Shown in pieces: positions 278-45,287 of a stretch of 45,287 nt of DNA. Origin of the DNA: Patescibacteria group bacterium (lineage in GTDB: Bacteria > Patescibacteriota > Kazan-3B-28 > UBA10110); contig JAZDKW010000015.1 in assembly GCA_043802665.1 (NCBI GenBank), positions 1 to 45,287 of the forward strand. The letters are read 5' to 3'. The notes beneath the pieces are model-generated. The model was not told the origin of the DNA. It did not search any database and saw only the letters and a program-made list of their open reading frames with translations. Position 1 is the stretch's first letter; each line of letters starts with the position of its first letter. The position numbers and the translations under genes were made by a program.

Positions 278-284
278 AAATAAT

Positions 285-318
285 GAACGGCTCAACGGGG
301 TGAGCCGTTGAGCCGTTC
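285..318. repeat. AACGGCTCAAC palindromic repeat, copy 1
   Basis: 14-bp stem GAACGGCTCAACGG/CCGTTGAGCCGTTC, 6-nt loop; related copies at 2631, 5531, 44195, 45010. Confidence 0.9.
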
Positions 319-333
319 GACTATTGGGTAGAT

Positions 334-355
334 AAAAACCCGCGAATAGCGGGTT
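334..355 (-). terminator. Intrinsic terminator for 383..913 (possibly bidirectional with polA)
   Basis: AACCCGC-N5-GCGGGTT followed by T run on minus strand. Confidence 0.75.
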
Positions 356-382
356 CTAATAAGGTGCATTTTGCAATTGTGG

Positions 383-913
383 TTAAGTTTTGTTCTGCTC
401 CCCTTTCTTGGCGTGCTGATAAATCTTATACATAAGGTCTTCTACCTCTTGCTCTTCCTTCACGTCGCGAAGGATCTCCTTCTCCTCTGCAGGCGAAAGA
501 TCGAAAGCATGTCCCCAAACTGGAGACAAGTTACCCCCGAACTCTGCTTCGCCTAAGATGCTCGCCAACAACCAGAGCGAGGCAATATCGTCAACAAGGG
601 CGCCGATCTGCTTAGCTGTGACTATCTTCTCTTGATAGGCACAGACTAAGCCTAATCGAGCGATCTCTCTCATTTTCTTAGGAGAGATTTTGAATTTCCC
701 TGCCTCGAGGCGATTGTGGGCGGCATCAAAGGCATGCCTCTCGCTATTTTCCAGGAAATAGTGTCTTTCGTTGCACCACTTTGATCCGCTGGCCAACGCA
801 TCTTCGATTTGTTGGACAACCTCGATTGCCTCCTTCTTAGGCAATGCAGGCAAAATATGCTTAAAAATAGTCGTGGGTGGGATTAAATCCGGTTCCACTT
901 CTGGTTCTGGCAT
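383..913 (-). CDS. Hypothetical protein (176 aa)
   Basis: ORF with AAGGAGGA SD at 921-928, promoter upstream, terminator downstream; no recognised family. Confidence 0.8.
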   Translation of the reverse strand: MPEPEVEPDLIPPTTIFKHILPALPKKEAIEVVQQIEDALASGSKWCNERHYFLENSERHAFDAAHNRLEAGKFKISPKKMREIARLGLVCAYQEKIVTAKQIGALVDDIASLWLLASILGEAEFGGNLSPVWGHAFDLSPAEEKEILRDVKEEQEVEDLMYKIYQHAKKGEQNKT

Positions 914-948
914 TATTTCTTCCTCCTTTTTGATTTGTCAATTTACTT

Positions 949-977
949 ACATTACCAGTTTTATTATACCCTGTCAA
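949..977 (-). promoter_or_regulatory. sigma70-type promoter
   Basis: TTGACA (977-972)-N17-TAATGT (954-949). Confidence 0.7.
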
Positions 978-1019
978 TGATTTTCCCCTCCGGGCCAAAG
1001 GCCCACCGGGCCGGAGGCC

Positions 1020-1037
1020 GCCCCCAGAGCTGGTTTT
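1020..1037. repeat. 18-bp direct repeat GCCCCCAGAGCTGGTTTT, copy 1
   Basis: Identical to 1581-1598; variant in reverse orientation at 44239-44253. Confidence 0.9.
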
Positions 1038-1077
1038 CCAACAAATGAAAAACCCGCCTTAGATGGGGTGGCAGGTT

Positions 1078-1494
1078 TCATTTGGATAGATAGGTGCATA
1101 ATAGGGATAGCGCCTCCGGGTTATGAGCCAATTGAGCGAGCTGTTCGCCAGACACCTCATGGGCGTCAAACGCTCTCTTGATTTGGCTTCCCCAGGTGAT
1201 TATATACGCGGAATGGGGAGATCCTCCCGAAAGAATACTAAACCTAAACATTGACTGAGGAACATCAACAACAATCACCCTCGCGTCATGATCAGATATA
1301 AAGATTCTGTCCGGATCAACCCCATAGAGTTGGTGAAAAGCTTTGATAGCATTTAGCAATGAGATTCTAAGAGAAACCCATTCGACGCTACTTAAACTTT
1401 CCAACAAAGCAGATATTGTTGTGGCATCCATTTTCTGCCCTATTGGCTCACCATTAACACAGACGAACCCATACATAGCGTTCAGTGGTATCAT
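1078..1494 (-). CDS. Hypothetical protein (138 aa)
   Basis: GGAGG SD, TTGACT-N17-AAGAAT promoter (1572-1544), weak terminator-like hairpin 1048-1069. Confidence 0.75.
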   Translation of the reverse strand: MIPLNAMYGFVCVNGEPIGQKMDATTISALLESLSSVEWVSLRISLLNAIKAFHQLYGVDPDRIFISDHDARVIVVDVPQSMFRFSILSGGSPHSAYIITWGSQIKRAFDAHEVSGEQLAQLAHNPEALSLLCTYLSK

Positions 1495-1580
1495 CCGTCG
1501 CCTCCATCAGCTCGTTCTATCTGAAAAAGTTGTCAATGTTGTTATTCTTTCATAATATTTAAAGATAGTCAAGTTTTGTT

Positions 1581-1598
1581 GCCCCCAGAGCTGGTTTT
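1581..1598. repeat. 18-bp direct repeat GCCCCCAGAGCTGGTTTT, copy 2
   Basis: Identical to 1020-1037. Confidence 0.9.
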
Positions 1599-1631
1599 TC
1601 CCCTGTGGCTATTGGGGTGTAAAATGAGGCT

Positions 1632-2492
1632 ATGCCAGAGTTACCAGAAGTAGAAACGATTGTGGGTGAGTTAAAAAGAGGCCTTGCCGGGGCGACTATT
1701 TTGGATGCCACTTTTTCTCGCCCCAAGCTGATTAAAAATATCTCCTATCCCACCTTCAGAAAAACTATCAAAGGGAAAACAATCCAAAAAATTGAGCGGA
1801 GGGCAAAATACATTCTTATTCATCTTTCTGGAAATAAAACTCTAATTCTCCATCTGGGAATGACCGGGCGGCTCCTCTTACACCCCCAAAAAGAGAAGGG
1901 ACAAGTAGTTAATCTCAAAACCAAGAAGAAAGAGCCGGATCGCTTTATCCGGGGACAATTTTTCTTAAATAAGGATAGGGTTTTGGATTTCTCCGATCTG
2001 CGGCTTTTCGGCAGAGTTTATCTGGTTGATACTAAAACGCTCCTTCAAAAAAAGCCAATCAAAAAATTAGGGGTTGACCCGCTCTCTAAAAACTTCACCT
2101 ATTCCCTCTTTACCGACCAACTCGCAAAAAGAAGAGGAAAAGTTAAAACTATTCTGATGAATCAAACTTTTTTGGCCGGAATTGGGAACATCTACAGCGA
2201 CGAGATTTTATTTGAAGCTAAAATCCACCCCCTTTCCCCCGTCCAAAAGTTAAAGCCTTCTCAAGTTAAGACACTTTACGCGGCCATCAAAAAAATCCTC
2301 AAAAAAGGGGTTAGGTATCGCGGGACTTCGGATTCCGACTATTTTGACCTCCAAGGAGAGACCGGAAACTTCCAAAAACATCTCAAGGTTTATGGCAAAA
2401 CCGGCCAACCTTGTTTCCGCTGTCCCGGAAAAGTGGAACGCCTAAAAGTCGGTGGCCGCAGTGCCCACTTCTGTTCAATGTGTCAACATTGA
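1632..2492 (+). CDS. mutM: Formamidopyrimidine-DNA glycosylase (Fpg)
   Basis: N-terminal PELPEVE, HLGMTG, H2TH GIGNIYSDE, C-terminal CxxC...CxxC zinc finger. Confidence 0.97.
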   Translation: MPELPEVETIVGELKRGLAGATILDATFSRPKLIKNISYPTFRKTIKGKTIQKIERRAKYILIHLSGNKTLILHLGMTGRLLLHPQKEKGQVVNLKTKKKEPDRFIRGQFFLNKDRVLDFSDLRLFGRVYLVDTKTLLQKKPIKKLGVDPLSKNFTYSLFTDQLAKRRGKVKTILMNQTFLAGIGNIYSDEILFEAKIHPLSPVQKLKPSQVKTLYAAIKKILKKGVRYRGTSDSDYFDLQGETGNFQKHLKVYGKTGQPCFRCPGKVERLKVGGRSAHFCSMCQH

Positions 2493-2829: not shown

Positions 2830-3405
2830 TCAATATTCTTCTCTCCTTCTCTCATCTTCTCTTCTCTCGTCATCTCTTCTATCGTCGTCTCTCCTTCTCT
2901 CATCTTCTTTTCTCTCATCTTCTCTTCTTTCTTCATCTCTTCTTCTCTCGTCATCTTCTCTCCTCTCGTCATCTCTTCTCTCGTCGTCTCTCCTCCAGCC
3001 TTCTCTCATCTCTTCATCTCTTCTCTCATCTTCTCTCGTCTGGTATTCTATTCTCTCGTATTCTCTTCTCTCCTCTTCTTCCTCTCGTATTCTCTCATCG
3101 TCTCTCCTCTTCTTCCTCTTATCTTCTCCCGTCCAGTATTCTCTTCTCTCGTCTTCTTCGTCTCCTTCCTCTCGTATTCTTCGTCTCCTTCTCTCGTCTT
3201 CTTCCTCTTTATCCTCTCGTCTTCTCTTCTCTTGTTGTTCTCTCCGGTATGCTAATTCACCATTCAAAGCGTTTGACTCTATCAAGACTGCCCCAATAAT
3301 AATGAGAACAATAACGAGAAAAATAGGGAGAATTGGAATATCTGCGCGAAAAGTTATGGTCAGCAAGAGTGCAGCGATCATCAGAAAAAAGAATATCTGT
3401 CGCAT
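2830..3405 (-). CDS. Membrane-anchored protein with R/E/D low-complexity tail
   Basis: AGGAGGT SD and promoter upstream; two hydrophobic N-terminal segments then about 135 aa dominated by R, E, D (DERR repeats). Confidence 0.7.
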   Translation of the reverse strand: MRQIFFFLMIAALLLTITFRADIPILPIFLVIVLIIIGAVLIESNALNGELAYRREQQEKRRREDKEEEDERRRRRIREEGDEEDERREYWTGEDKRKKRRDDERIREEEEERREYERIEYQTREDERRDEEMREGWRRDDERRDDERREDDERRRDEERREDERKEDERRRDDDRRDDERREDERRREEY

Positions 3406-3543
3406 TTTAGCGACCTCCTTTTTGGGATTAGTTGGGTTGGATTGTCAAGGTGCCTTTCTGCCCCTATTTATATCAAGCCATTGTTGGCGATTATAGGTGG
3501 CAATCAAGTCAGCTATATTATGGCATATGGAGGAGTTTGTCAA
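3406..3543 (-). promoter_or_regulatory. Duplicated promoter/leader module, copy A
   Basis: TTGACA (3543-3538)-N17-TAATAT (3520-3515), leader hairpin, GCACCTTGACAA, AAGGAGGT; 27-bp and 20-bp blocks identical to 5343-5468. Confidence 0.85.
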
Positions 3544-3708
3544 TGGAACCCTTAGCCACCATTGCCGTCTTAGCGCACCAGTCTACGCTATAGCGTATAC
3601 TCATGCGTTCTGGTTTCAAACCAGCCATTGGAGCCTGAGCGTTTTTTCTATCCCTACTCCGGCCATTGGAGGAGAGGCGTCAATGAAATGAGTTCAGGGC
3701 GTGACACG

Positions 3709-3760: not shown

Positions 3761-4348
3761 TCAAAGGACGGGAACGACCGGAACACAACTCTGCGCCGTA
3801 TGATTGAAATACATGGCCCAGTTGTTGCCTGGGAAAGGATAACCCTTGCCCCAAGCTGTCTCTTCCTGAACCACTTCATGCTGAGACACCGCAGTACTTT
3901 CGCCCAGCCTCCAAACCTTCGCATGGGCCGCGACATAAAGCATTGTACCATCAGACCAAAGGCTCCGGTCAATCCAGCTGTCGATGGTGTAAGCGAATTG
4001 CCCGACTTTCGGATTCCCCGTCTTGGTTTGGGGAATACCTTCCAGGGAATCAGACACGGCAACGTGCGTTTCTACTAATACCCAAGGTGCCCATGTTGTA
4101 TACTCAACATAGACAAACTGAGCATCGTTCGTGACAATGACCCTGCCGATAATCATGTTCTGACCGGCAATGAGAGGTGTCGTGGTTGCCTTACCGCAAT
4201 AAACTGGCGGGAGATAAGAAAGATCCCTTACCTCCGATCCGGACGCTATGGTAGGCATCACAGGACTGACCGCGTTGTCTTTGCCAGCGCATGAAATTAT
4301 GGCAAGCAAAAGCATAGTGATCATCAGAGAAGAAAGTATCTGTCGCAT
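3761..4348 (-). CDS. Putative lipoprotein with uncharacterised beta-rich domain
   Basis: Signal peptide ending AIIS-C; motifs LIAGQ, ETHV, GNPKVGQF, AAHAKV, ETAWG, NNWAMYF; AGGAGGT SD. Confidence 0.8.
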   Translation of the reverse strand: MRQILSSLMITMLLLAIISCAGKDNAVSPVMPTIASGSEVRDLSYLPPVYCGKATTTPLIAGQNMIIGRVIVTNDAQFVYVEYTTWAPWVLVETHVAVSDSLEGIPQTKTGNPKVGQFAYTIDSWIDRSLWSDGTMLYVAAHAKVWRLGESTAVSQHEVVQEETAWGKGYPFPGNNWAMYFNHTAQSCVPVVPVL

Positions 4349-4433
4349 TTTGGCGACCTCCTTTTGGAATTGTAGTTGATTCTATGTCAACAGGTGGAGA
4401 TTAGTATCTCTATCCTGAATTGATGGGATTCGG

Positions 4434-5342: not shown

Positions 5343-5468
5343 TGTTTGCGACCTCCTTTAGGATAGATTTTCAAGGGGCAACCTGCCCCTATTTATATCA
5401 AGCCATTGTAGGCAATTATAGGTGGCAGTATAGTCAATTATATTATGGCATATGGAGGGGTTTGTCAA
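5343..5468 (-). promoter_or_regulatory. Duplicated promoter/leader module, copy B
   Basis: TTGACA (5468-5463)-N17-TAATAT (5445-5440); homologous to 3406-3543. Confidence 0.85.
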
Positions 5469-5470
5469 AG

Positions 5471-5519
5471 GAGAATTCTATACTCCCACCTCCCCCAGCC
5501 CCTCCTCGGGCAGGAGGGG
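5471..5519 (-). repeat. CCCCTCCTGCC-GAGGAGGGG hairpin repeat
   Basis: Reverse complement nearly identical to 43080-43127. Confidence 0.85.
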
Positions 5520-5530
5520 AATTTCTACCC

Positions 5531-5562
5531 AACGGCTCAACGGGGCGAGCCGTTGAGCCGTT
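5531..5562. repeat. AACGGCTCAAC palindromic repeat, copy 3
   Basis: 13-bp stem AACGGCTCAACGG/CCGTTGAGCCGTT; nearly identical to 285-318. Confidence 0.9.
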
Positions 5563-5571
5563 CGCTTATTT

Positions 5572-43079: not shown

Positions 43080-43575
43080 CCCCTCCTGCCTGAGGAGGGG
43101 TTGGGGGAGGAGGGAGTATAATTTCTCCAATTTTGTAAAATCAATAAAACTTTTCTTGTCACCCATTTGCCTGCCCCGAGTATTTGGGGCGCCGCCAAAT
43201 CCTTTTCTGTTACTTTCCCGAGCCTGCCCGTGCCGGGCTTTGACGGCCAGGGGAAAGTAACCAAAGTCTCCAGGCAGTCGTCGAGGCTATGAAATGGCAA
43301 AAATCTCTGGGTGTTAATGGGCCAAACTCAGCCGATATGCCATCGGCCTCAAACATAGCCCTCACCCACAGAGATTTTACTCCCGACTTTACTAAAGCTA
43401 CGACGGGCAGGCATTTCATAACGCCTCTCCCTGCCTACCGGCAGGCAGGCTCCAATGCCCGGTTTTAGGTAGTAGAAACCCAACAGCTCATCCATACTGG
43501 GCAATTTTACTATTGGCAATCTGAATTTGCTCAATGGGTTAGAAGCCAAAAACGCTCGAGCTCCAATGGCTGGAT
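43080..43575. repeat. Composite of nested palindromic repeats
   Basis: Hairpin repeat 43080-43127; GTTACTTTCCC/GGGAAAGTAAC; AAAATCTCTG/CAGAGATTTT; CCTGCCTACCGGCAGGCAGG; blocks shared with 3621-3690 and 45243-45285. Confidence 0.8.
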
Positions 43576-44128: not shown

Positions 44129-44313
44129 GTCATTCTGGCTTGCGCTATCCCTCCGTAGCCTTGGCGAAGGACGGGTCCAGAATCGTATAATTTAAACGGC
44201 TCAATACTTGCCCGCCTTGGGAGGGGGTTGAGCCGTTCAAAACCAGGTCTGGGAATGGCCTCAGGCCCGGAGGCCTTCCAGCTCGCTTTACGAGCACCGG
44301 ACCGAAGGGAAAA
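44129..44313. repeat. Repeat cluster upstream of the orphan gene
   Basis: ATTCTGG/CCAGAAT stem with nested CCCTCCGTAGCCTTGGCGAAGGACGG; AACGGCTCAA/TTGAGCCGTT (44195-44237); AAAACCAGGTCTGGG; GGCCTCAGGCCCGGAGGCC. Confidence 0.8.
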
Positions 44314-44316
44314 CTT

Positions 44317-44376
44317 TTGACTGAAACCTACTCTTTATGTTACTTTGGAACCATTCTTGATTACAATCTTTGACAA
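44317..44376 (+). promoter_or_regulatory. Promoter and boxA-like motif
   Basis: TTGACT-N18-TACTTT with TG extension; AATCTTTGACAA at 44365-44376. Confidence 0.6.
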
Positions 44377-44424: not shown

Positions 44425-44913
44425 ATGTCAGGCACAAATATAGTTAGCCAGAAGATTATCCAGATTGATCCTGACCAACCGTTTAACCCCACCGAGTTTA
44501 TCGGTAAAGGTTGGACTATTGATGAGGAAGATGAGAGAGATCTTTCTTTCGCCGAATTGGATCTGTCTAAGATTCAGTTCGAGACGTGTCTTAAAGAAAA
44601 TGAATTCGTCATCACCGGTGAGGAAAAGCTTAGGCGCTTGAAAGCTATGAAAGTTATCCGGCATGGTGGCAACATTTTCCTGGCGCTGTGGCAGGATTAC
44701 AAAGCCAATAATGAGAACAGTGGTTTGAAATGGATTTACCAAAACCAAGGAGTTACCCACCTTGATTTCTTTGGCCTTGTTATGCGCAACCCTGTTAGCT
44801 TTCGTCATGTACCCTCTTTTTATTGGCGTAGCGGCAGGTGGTTCTGGCGTTGCCTCTGGCTCGACCGTGACTGGTGGCGCAGTAACCATCCTTCGGCTGT
44901 ATCTACCAAGTAG
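44425..44913 (+). CDS. Hypothetical protein, candidate DGR target with C-terminal variable region
   Basis: GGAG SD; Trp-rich C-terminus ending PSAV; A-poor, NNY-codon-rich 3' end. Confidence 0.7.
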   Translation: MSGTNIVSQKIIQIDPDQPFNPTEFIGKGWTIDEEDERDLSFAELDLSKIQFETCLKENEFVITGEEKLRRLKAMKVIRHGGNIFLALWQDYKANNENSGLKWIYQNQGVTHLDFFGLVMRNPVSFRHVPSFYWRSGRWFWRCLWLDRDWWRSNHPSAVSTK

Positions 44914-45009: not shown

Positions 45010-45050
45010 GAACGGCTCAACGAACGGCTCAACGCGTTGAGCCGTTCGTT
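45010..45050. repeat. AACGGCTCAAC palindromic repeat, copy 5
   Basis: Perfect 32-bp palindrome 45019-45050 plus an extra tandem GAACGGCTCAAC. Confidence 0.9.
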
Positions 45051-45112: not shown

Positions 45113-45287
45113 CACCCATTTGCTCCGCCAAACGGGTGGCGCCCAAAGGCGATCCCAATCCCAAATCCAGTTGCCAAAAACTAAAATTGCCCTTTCTGGA
45201 TTTAACCGCAAACTCCTCCTCGTTCTACTCGTCGTCAGACATGCTCATCCATACCGGGCAATTTTACTATTGGCAATCTGAATTTAC
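45113..45287. repeat. Second, truncated copy of the 43160-43530 element
   Basis: CACCCATTTGC shared with 43160-43170; 45243-45285 matches 43486-43528 at 42/43 nt. Confidence 0.8.

Follow-up and report, generated by a model that had tools for sequence, protein, structure and literature searches.

An order-wide promoter module with a predicted operator palindrome heads orphan genes in Patescibacteria

The orphan genes of Patescibacteria, or Candidate Phyla Radiation (CPR), are usually treated as unstructured noise, and to our knowledge almost nothing is known about gene control in these bacteria. Here, we describe a repeated promoter module that heads such genes in a contig of 45,287 nucleotides (nt), hereafter the window, of a Patescibacteria group bacterium (GTDB lineage Bacteria; Patescibacteriota; Kazan-3B-28; UBA10110; contig JAZDKW010000015.1 of assembly GCA_043802665.1). 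Several known systems resemble parts of this arrangement. Integron cassettes are promoterless, are bounded by structured attC sites of 57-141 nt and depend on an integrase, IntI, beside attI. Among the promoter-proximal dyad operators of dimeric activators are the class I sites of CRP. The report on PeSL (promoter-early stem-loop) cassettes in the T4-type phages RB49 and phi1 describes repeated sigma-70-like promoters, AT-rich upstream of the -35 box, in units that hold a small orphan gene with its own terminator or stem-loop and are clustered in variable (hyperplastic) regions; an orphan found between two copies in one phage and a single copy in a relative was explained by recombination between the repeats (PMC2839356). 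For Mor of phage Mu, a 16-bp element that is centred at -43.5 of the middle promoter and contains a pair of 5-bp inverted repeats is reported (PMC4390567). In prokaryotes, promoters that closely resemble each other but head unrelated genes, be it in one genome or in several, are described as promoter reuse or putative mobile promoters (PMC3575422).

In what follows, G000 is the genome under study (28 contigs, 626,583 bases, the window being contig C15), G001-G005 are its genus relatives, L086 is a metagenome contig of a close relative and other L labels denote extracted stretches. The 15-mer AAAACCAGnTCTGGG, which recurs in the window, is the upstream end of a promoter module of 60-67 nt. The module is made of a distal A-tract, an 11-bp near-palindrome (GCTCTGGGAGC), a proximal GGAAAAC, TTGACA, a 17-nt spacer and TAnnnT, in this order. 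Counted from the predicted transcription starts, the distal A-tract lies at about -62 to -59, the palindrome at about -55 to -45 and the proximal A-tract at about -42 to -39; compared with an UP element, which is A/T-rich from about -40 to -60, there are two A-tracts at these positions with a GC-rich palindrome between them. A relaxed pattern recovered an ungapped register of about 60 nt in G000 (A-tract, CAG, nTCTGGGAGC, GGAAAACTC, TTGACA, 17 nt, TAnnnT), often followed by AAAAATATA. Nine in-register copies were alike in the order and spacing of their elements. A profile made of these nine copies, read from the genome by coordinates, gave 40 matches in G000 at E<=10, of which the 15 at E<0.05 are called strong sites. 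In four G000 promoters the dyad is inverted (GCTCCCAGAGC or GCTTCCAGAGC), 9 nt from TTGACA as in the forward form, and the inverted dyad stands at the same position in five further genomes (G006, G008, G012, G020 and G025).

The module is found throughout the order. A sequence-only model of 67 nt, built from 12 G000 copies and searched against G000 and 40 relatives, matched all 25 other genomes of the order (family f1 12/12, f2 13/13), with 7-23 matches per genome at E<=0.01; G000 itself has 23. Among 15 genomes from other orders of the phylum, nine had no match and six had 1-4 weak ones (best E 2e-4); the out-of-order match among the matches listed covers model positions 23-65 only, that is, the -35/-10 part. 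When 26 matches taken from the 25 relatives are aligned, the 11-mer is as informative per position as TTGAC, the spacer and the outer flanks are near random, and the dyad stands 9-11 nt from TTGAC. Together with the 12 G000 copies, these matches have the features of sigma-70-type promoters: a near-invariant TTGAC, a 17-nt spacer and TAnnnT. Random placement relative to promoters and orphan genes had been named as an outcome that would speak against both a recombination site and a regulon; instead, the motif keeps a fixed 9-11 nt to a near-consensus -35 box in the 15 strong G000 copies and in 25/25 relatives of the order. A degenerate form also stands at the same distance to TTGAC upstream of genus homologues of two window orphans, the genes for proteins of 176 and 162 amino acids (aa), and in the orthologous promoters of the 176-aa gene it is retained at protein identities of 32-48%. 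Strong promoters as such are therefore not marked by the dyad: at TTGAC[AT]-N16-18-TAnnnT sites in G000 it is found 7-11 nt upstream in 16/100 (<=2 mismatches, either orientation), the 11-mer occurs within 200 nt upstream of 0/48 tRNA genes, and no canonically spaced copy precedes the 16S rRNA gene. Upstream of the latter there are two 11-mers with two mismatches, one 28 nt upstream of TTGACT-N17-TATAAT and the other with no TTGAC behind it. In public records, the exact string TCTGGGAGCGGAAAAYNNTTGAC was found in four stretches of two genome records, at positions as in the genus relatives G004 and G005, and in no viral contig. A looser pattern was found in one viral contig (L091, IMGVR_UViG_3300020125_000659), with one weak model match in that record, which is within what chance may give. 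There, positions 590-660 read A-tract, CGCTCTGGGAGCG, AAAAAAGAC, TTGACA, 17 nt, TAAACT, in a single copy in a 45-kb record; chance and a phage of this lineage are both possible. A phage origin of the module was rejected, the exact pattern being in 0 viral contigs and the looser one in 1.

The genes behind the module are of one kind. An open reading frame (ORF) of at least 45 aa within 400 nt follows 14/15 strong G000 sites (the exception is C20:53104); in G000 and the relatives together, the ORFs mostly have a GGAG-type ribosome-binding site. None of the 14 proteins reached a Pfam cut-off; the protein on C16 had a sub-threshold match to ScsC_N (19.9 bits vs a cut-off of 25.8). At the best-scoring locus of each order relative (n=25) there is an ORF in 23 cases; 22 of these 23 lack a Pfam family at E<=0.01, the remaining one has a sub-threshold match to Glucosaminidase, and no protein reached a cut-off. 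Neither PHROGs nor NCBIfam gave a family for the 15 module-driven proteins scanned, and three orphans of the window had no family in Pfam, PHROGs or NCBIfam. As background, 36 of the 45 other window ORFs of at least 70 aa had a Pfam match at E<=0.001 (3/3 and 33/42), and among six further proteins scanned against Pfam behind weak profile matches (E 0.18-1.6), three had ordinary families. The module-driven proteins are mutually non-paralogous, save one family of three: C15:44425, C24:391 and C16:12357.

A diversity-generating retroelement has its targets in this family. G000 encodes a reverse transcriptase at C2:2170-2778, and in two pairs of template and variable repeats the mismatches fall at template adenines in 21/23 (C2) and 13/16 (C24) cases. 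Both target genes (C2:398-1168 and C24:391-972) lie directly behind strong modules. The last 141 nt of the window are the first 141 nt of C24, which places the 44425 gene and the C24 target in tandem, with a separate module ahead of each. No template repeat for the 3' end of the 44425 gene was found in the G000 genome. The parts of the retroelement lie at C2:398-2778 and C24:391-1431, the C24 pair having no reverse transcriptase nearby in the assembly. The leaders of the target family have in common AAGGTGG, a variable hairpin and AACCACyrGCACCTT behind the -10 box (L028, G000:C24, about 300-385; L033, G000:C16; L014 of G004; L025 of G009). Judged from its letters, this block looks like a conserved structured 5' leader; Rfam gave no match for L028 and L033, and the window paralogue at 44425 lacks the block.

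Another recurrent product behind the module is a basic protein of 52-57 aa, present in 22/41 genomes: G000, 21/25 other members of the order and 0/15 genomes outside it. In at least 15 of the 22 genomes the module stands directly upstream (by coordinates, among the matches listed). An ESM Atlas search gave no usable match for this protein, and AlphaFold2 modelled it as one long helix with low confidence (pLDDT 70.5, pTM 0.27). As the regulator itself, a protein with Sigma70_r4 and HARE-HTH domains (C26:13591-14763) was considered and rejected, as it is present in 39/41 genomes, including 14/15 outside the order. Its locus (G000:C26:13473-14763, L042) encodes 390 aa, and there a perfect AGCTCTGGGAGCT palindrome precedes the consensus TTGACA-N17-TATAAT by about 33 nt.

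We consider it fairly probable that the module is a promoter-operator for a putative dimeric regulator that co-controls orphan units, and that its copies also serve as homology for recombination. The palindrome has the features expected of an operator that defines a regulon: a fixed position, several promoters and retention in orthologous promoters beyond the neutral background. It is predicted to be bound near -50 by a dimeric regulator specific to this order of ultra-small bacteria, which would act on RNA polymerase from there, between the two UP-like A-tracts, by activation or repression. Some 15-23 mostly single-gene units per genome would thus be co-regulated; they encode fast-evolving lineage-specific proteins, including both retroelement targets and the conserved 52-57-aa basic protein. 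Recombination is the weaker, second claim: since the module is the only sizeable repeat common to the units, its copies may provide the homology, and ordinary recombination between them would add, delete or homogenise promoter-plus-orphan units such as that of the 138-aa gene in the window. An earlier note on this DNA had offered two alternatives, an operator or UP element defining an orphan-gene regulon and a recombination site for promoter-carrying cassettes. The former is supported and reaches further than proposed, across the whole order, with genes that almost all lack a family. A dedicated recombination site is not supported, there being no att- or attC-like anatomy and the conservation being that of a promoter element; what is left of this half is ordinary recombination between repeated promoters.

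The window contains three copies of the motif, named A, B and C, with the following features:

949..986, minus strand: core promoter of 383..913, with GGAAAATCA (978-986), TTGACA (972-977), a 17-nt spacer and TAATGT (949-954)
987..1019, minus strand: 33-nt GC-rich insertion that parts the dyad region from GGAAAATCA; its boundary is ambiguous by 2-3 nt (G runs)
1020..1037, minus strand: motif copy A, which makes up the upstream A-tract and the dyad's left part in the promoter of 383..913
383..913, minus strand: 176-aa orphan gene, with homologues in 3/5 genus relatives
1537..1599, minus strand: promoter module B, which heads the 138-aa gene (sequence-only model E 1.9e-9; nhmmer E 3e-6); it reads, from sequence, A-tract, dyad GCTCTGGGGGC (1581-1591), AACAAAAC, TTGACT, 17-nt spacer, AAGAAT
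1078..1494, minus strand: 138-aa orphan gene (ORF call) between two motif copies; no Pfam, PHROGs or NCBIfam family
1040..1077, minus strand: terminator-like hairpin with a TTTTT run behind it, immediately downstream of the 138-aa gene
44239..44256, plus strand: motif copy C, an A-tract and the dyad variant GTCTGGGAAT
44257..44307, plus strand: 51-nt GC-rich insertion, at the same place of the module as in copy A
44308..44346, plus strand: core promoter of 44425..44913, with GGAAAACTT, TTGACT (44317-44322), a spacer and TACTTT
44425..44913, plus strand: 162-aa orphan gene, paralogue of the C24 retroelement target (E 2.8e-8 to the C24 protein)

Copies A and B lie in the region between the end of polA and mutM, and copy C sits behind ruvC. 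As the earlier note had said, the 18-mer GCCCCCAGAGCTGGTTTT occurs in exact copies at 1020-1037 and 1581-1598, the latter within module B, and the two bracket the 138-aa gene. No third copy is present in the window, even at 3 mismatches; by chance 0.02 copies are expected, and two were reached in 0/100 shuffles. AAAACCAGNNCTGG occurs at 1024-1037 (minus strand), 1585-1598 (minus strand) and 44239-44252 (plus strand) and has no further copy in the 28 contigs of G000; at <=1 mismatch, 0.39 copies are expected, and three were reached in 1/100 shuffles. Likewise, the three copies of AAAACCAGnnCTGG in the G000 genome are all within the window. The unit of the 138-aa gene is indeed complete, with TTGACT 8 nt past the 18-mer, GGAGG ahead of the ATG and the hairpin with its T-run (fold of 1040-1080, minus strand, -7.1 kcal/mol, z -2.54; 4/200 shuffles as good), and the layout claimed ahead of 383..913 and of 44425..44913 is present by sequence. 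For 383..913, the core-promoter layout is the same in G002, and G001 and G005 have TTGACA-N16/17-TATAAT. Other parts of the description had to be changed. The dyad CCAG-N2-CTGG holds in the three window copies and fails across the family, because the base before CAG varies; there, the conserved dyad is GCTC-N3-GAGC (GCTCTGGGAGC). Of the 18 nt, the truly common part is the 15-mer, the last 3 nt of copy A being at an insertion junction. The GGCCTC..GGAGG spacer, taken for a design element, is instead an insertion of 33 nt in copy A and 51 nt in copy C.

In copy A, the insertion has landed within the dyad's right arm or immediately at it, and its first bases recreate ..CTGGGGGC; therefore, the 18-nt identity of A and B is made of 15 shared nt and 3 junction nt. 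In L086, copy A' has no GC-rich block and reads AAAACCAGTTCTGGGAGAGCAAAATCCTTGACA, so the 33-nt block is specific to the G000 line. In G004 (L014), a unit that carries the same AAAACCAGGTCTGGG motif and precedes a gene distantly related to 44425 has no GC block either. Within G000, a GGCCTCnGGCCCGG-like sequence is present at copies A and C only, other matches at <=2 mismatches being unlike it, and related GC-rich blocks occur in unrelated contexts in relatives. We read the blocks, on the strength of their letters, as later insertions of a small GC-rich repeat, outside the design of the module, both at the same module point, which may reflect a preferred target or copying from module to module. 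A function of the GC spacer as a hairpin was rejected, the fold of the copy A block being no better than shuffles (z 0.49) and that of the copy C block marginal (-11.8 kcal/mol, z -1.43).

The interval between polA and mutM has five different contents among G000/L086, G001, G002/G005, G003 and G004. No homologue of the 138-aa gene was found in 12 genomes of the family; among 5.8 billion proteins it has two clusters only, 89-90% identical, and it was found on one metagenome contig, L086. This contig is 92% identical to G000 in DNA (749-column alignment; 138-aa protein 90% identical) and has the same order: mutM, copy B', gene, terminator, copy A' and the start of the 176-aa homologue. Both copies in L086 read CAGTTCTGG and both in G000 read CAGCTCTGG. 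Since one substitution (C/T) is common to copies that are 561 nt apart, the sequences suggest gene conversion between A and B. Homologues of the 176-aa protein, 32-48% identical, are present in G001, G002 and G005, with the motif upstream of each. The earlier note had predicted that relatives lacking the 138-aa gene keep a single copy of the motif, and this is the case in G001: its interval runs from polA through a homologue of the 176-aa gene (160 aa) and a single motif copy (15/18 nt) to mutM, with no 138-aa gene and no GC block. The left flank of the single copy matches the copy B side and the right flank (GGAAAAATCATTGACA) the copy A side; a crossover inside the 15-mer common to copies B and A would yield this arrangement. 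In G002 and G005 another divergent gene adjoins the 176-aa homologue, in G003 (L050, G003:C2, 712-1493) the module-driven orphans are replaced by two unrelated genes (137 and 129 aa) that share the strand of polA and mutM, and in G004 mutM has a different neighbour. Elsewhere, G008 has two modules 551 nt apart with one ORF behind each, and module matches in G003 form co-oriented clusters. Of indels that end in repeats there is one fitting case, the two copies plus gene of G000/L086 vs the one copy of G001. Contigs of four public DNA runs (three studies) gave no skipped or circular joints, but such low-depth pieces of 150-300 nt cannot show absence; two of them (802-1085 and 863-1067) bridge copy A exactly.

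On the other side of copy B lies the start of mutM:

1618..1634, plus strand: predicted mutM -10 element TGTAAAAT, of the extended -10 type, 6 nt before the mutM ATG in G000, G001 and L086

Because TGTAAAAT is only 6 nt before the ATG, the mutM mRNA is probably leaderless. Dyad B is a constant 19 nt upstream of TGTAAAAT in G000, G001 and L086, although the intervening sequence differs.

The main rival to a separate regulator is that the module is simply a strong promoter, in which RNA polymerase recognises a lineage-specific element directly, the dyad and the A-tracts being read by its alpha C-terminal domain or a sigma region in altered form. The positions of the A-tracts agree with those of the proximal and distal UP subsites in model bacteria, as known from E. 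coli, the -35 and -10 boxes are close to consensus, and the conservation of the module coincides with one order, as a change in the polymerase would. Such a polymerase would be expected to favour the strongest promoters, however, and the tRNA and 16S rRNA genes are without a canonical dyad, which marks only the 16/100 promoter-like sites mentioned above. Moreover, the dyad stands in either orientation at one position, which is easier to reconcile with a symmetric dimer than with a directional contact with polymerase, and its GC-rich core is unlike any described UP element. We therefore regard this explanation as rather unlikely, while taking it seriously. It is improbable that the copies are a mobile-promoter repeat spread by descent or hitch-hiking, alike from youth and with a palindrome that has no present function. 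The modules do precede non-homologous genes, and similar promoters ahead of unrelated genes are described in prokaryotes (PMC3575422). Against this, the 11-mer and the boxes are near-invariant while the positions between them are randomised in 25 genomes of two families, a pattern to be expected from selection on specific positions rather than from recent copying; orthologous promoters likewise keep the motif at the low protein identities given above.

Still less credit is due to a dedicated att- or attC-like site with the motif as its core, at which a site-specific recombinase would insert and excise promoter-carrying cassettes. The direct repeats that bracket a complete one-gene unit, the dyad symmetry of the core, the variable polA-mutM interval and the genus relative with a single copy and no 138-aa gene would all suit such a site. 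No recombination core, however, needs a fixed distance to the -35 box at 15 or more loci in both orientations, most copies head single units with no second bracketing copy, and the 18-nt identity shrinks to 15 nt at a recognised insertion junction. The 48 ORFs of the window encode no recombinase beyond RuvC, RecA and FtsK, and the sole tyrosine recombinase of G000 (a Phage_integrase match) is on another contig, at C2:3039-3545. It is this combination of promoter anatomy and the lack of a recombinase adjoining the units that makes a dedicated site unlikely.

Several points weigh against an operator for an order-specific regulator. Transcription starts are predictions and co-expression is an assumption, and a classical helix-turn-helix dimer would be expected to have a longer site than these 11 bp, whose arms are 7 bp apart. 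Among the candidates compared, no DNA-binding protein is tied to the dyad; the best phyletic match for the regulator, the 52-57-aa protein, has no recognisable DNA-binding fold in its low-confidence model. The enrichment for orphans was obtained with simple ORF calls, and a few genes with long leaders (122-253 nt) may be unreal. The GC-rich insertions shift or split the dyad by 33 or 51 nt from the -35 box, which a regulator dependent on spacing should not tolerate; promoters A and C may have escaped control, or spacing may matter less than assumed. The conserved distance of dyad B to the mutM -10 box means that mutM may share the control and that the set is maybe not one of orphans only. As to recombination, the C/T change shared by the copies in L086 is a single site, and in a relative as distant as G001 (mutM about 42% identical) the single copy may be ancestral and not the product of a deletion.

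Palindromes of a second kind lie near some of the modules:

284..320: AACGGCTCAAC..GTTGAGCCGTT palindrome in the gap that separates polA from the end of the 176-aa gene, a member of a genome-wide intergenic family
44195..44238: AACGGCTCAA..TTGAGCCGTT palindrome abutting motif copy C (fold z -4.53; 0/200 shuffles as good)

The AACGGCTCAAC..GTTGAGCCGTT 11-mer has 29 matches on the plus strand of G000 at <=1 mismatch. In the window, palindromes of this family are found at 284-320, 2627-2654, 5527-5563, 44195-44238 and 45011-45050, always intergenic; the last lies behind the 44425 gene, which is thereby flanked on both sides. They are not classical terminators, because no T-run follows. Some modules (copies A and C, C2:19314, C20:59567 and C24:203) have a terminator-like hairpin or a AACGGCTCAAC palindrome shortly before them, and genome-wide the family is mostly away from modules. 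Further repeats of the window lie elsewhere. A 43-nt direct repeat (98% identical, 43486-43528 and 45243-45285) brackets 1.76 kb in which ruvC, module C and the 44425 gene lie. Two orphan genes are preceded by a 90-nt block (90% identical, 3458-3547 and 5383-5472) with a promoter of another type, TTGACA-N17-TAATAT and no dyad, and a 79-nt block (80% identical, 3344-3422 and 4287-4365) spans the 5' ends of two neighbouring orphan genes. The ORF at 2830-3405 (minus strand, 191 aa) has a hydrophobic start, no Pfam family and a long low-complexity region rich in Arg, Glu and Asp that is encoded by imperfect repeats with a 15-nt period. Rfam gave no match over the window at gathering scores and none at E<=0.1 over nine module loci, and neither the window nor seven module loci contain tRNA or tmRNA genes.

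The 67-nt model singles out a defined set of promoters, about 10-23 of them, in every genome of the order, heading the least conserved genes including retroelement targets. The variable gene set of uncultured members of the order can thus be defined from sequence alone, the dyad is a concrete DNA bait for finding the regulator, and recombination between promoter copies is a testable route for gene gain and loss in very small genomes. It is tempting to speculate, as a tentative picture that may well prove wrong, that fast-evolving genes, for retroelement-diversified proteins and lineage-specific orphans and probably for interaction with the host, are kept in this order as portable one-gene units under one shared promoter-operator module with two jobs. 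These would be common control by one putative order-specific regulator and homology for the insertion, deletion and exchange of units, and small GC-rich insertions inside the operator could uncouple single units from the shared control.

How, then, does the module compare with the known systems? Like integron cassettes, the units hold one gene, form variable arrays and are bounded by a recurring dyad-symmetric sequence. Unlike them, each unit has its own -35/-10 promoter-like site and the repeat is a promoter element; an IntI-type tyrosine integrase next to the units was not found among the 48 window ORFs, the only Phage_integrase match of G000 being the one on C2. Promoter reuse differs in that here the likeness is confined to functional positions and is kept across a whole order, which argues for a shared regulator and not for recent copying. 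With the operators of Mor and CRP, the module shares a short inverted repeat upstream of a sigma-70-type -35 box, beside a partial UP element, that defines a set of promoters; here, in contrast, the sequence is unrelated, the centre is near -50, the -35 box is consensus and not weak, and no such protein family is tied to the site. Word searches of the open-access literature gave no Patescibacteria promoter motif and no promoter-mediated cassette in cellular genomes, which is not proof of absence.

The closest described system is that of the PeSL cassettes, which likewise combine a repeated strong promoter and its AT-rich upstream part with orphan genes in variable regions. The comparison of G000/L086 with G001 has the same form as the ORFan192 example in that report (PMC2839356). 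The differences are that the host here is cellular and not a phage, that conservation is highest in a GC-rich palindrome ahead of the -35 box, a feature not described for PeSLs, and that the stem-loops near the modules (AACGGCTCAAC palindromes) are a separate genome-wide family. The module would thus combine two known kinds, a promoter-proximal operator and promoter-borne orphan cassettes, and, if the tentative picture given above is true, cells would have in it an equivalent of the PeSL cassettes known from T4-type phages.

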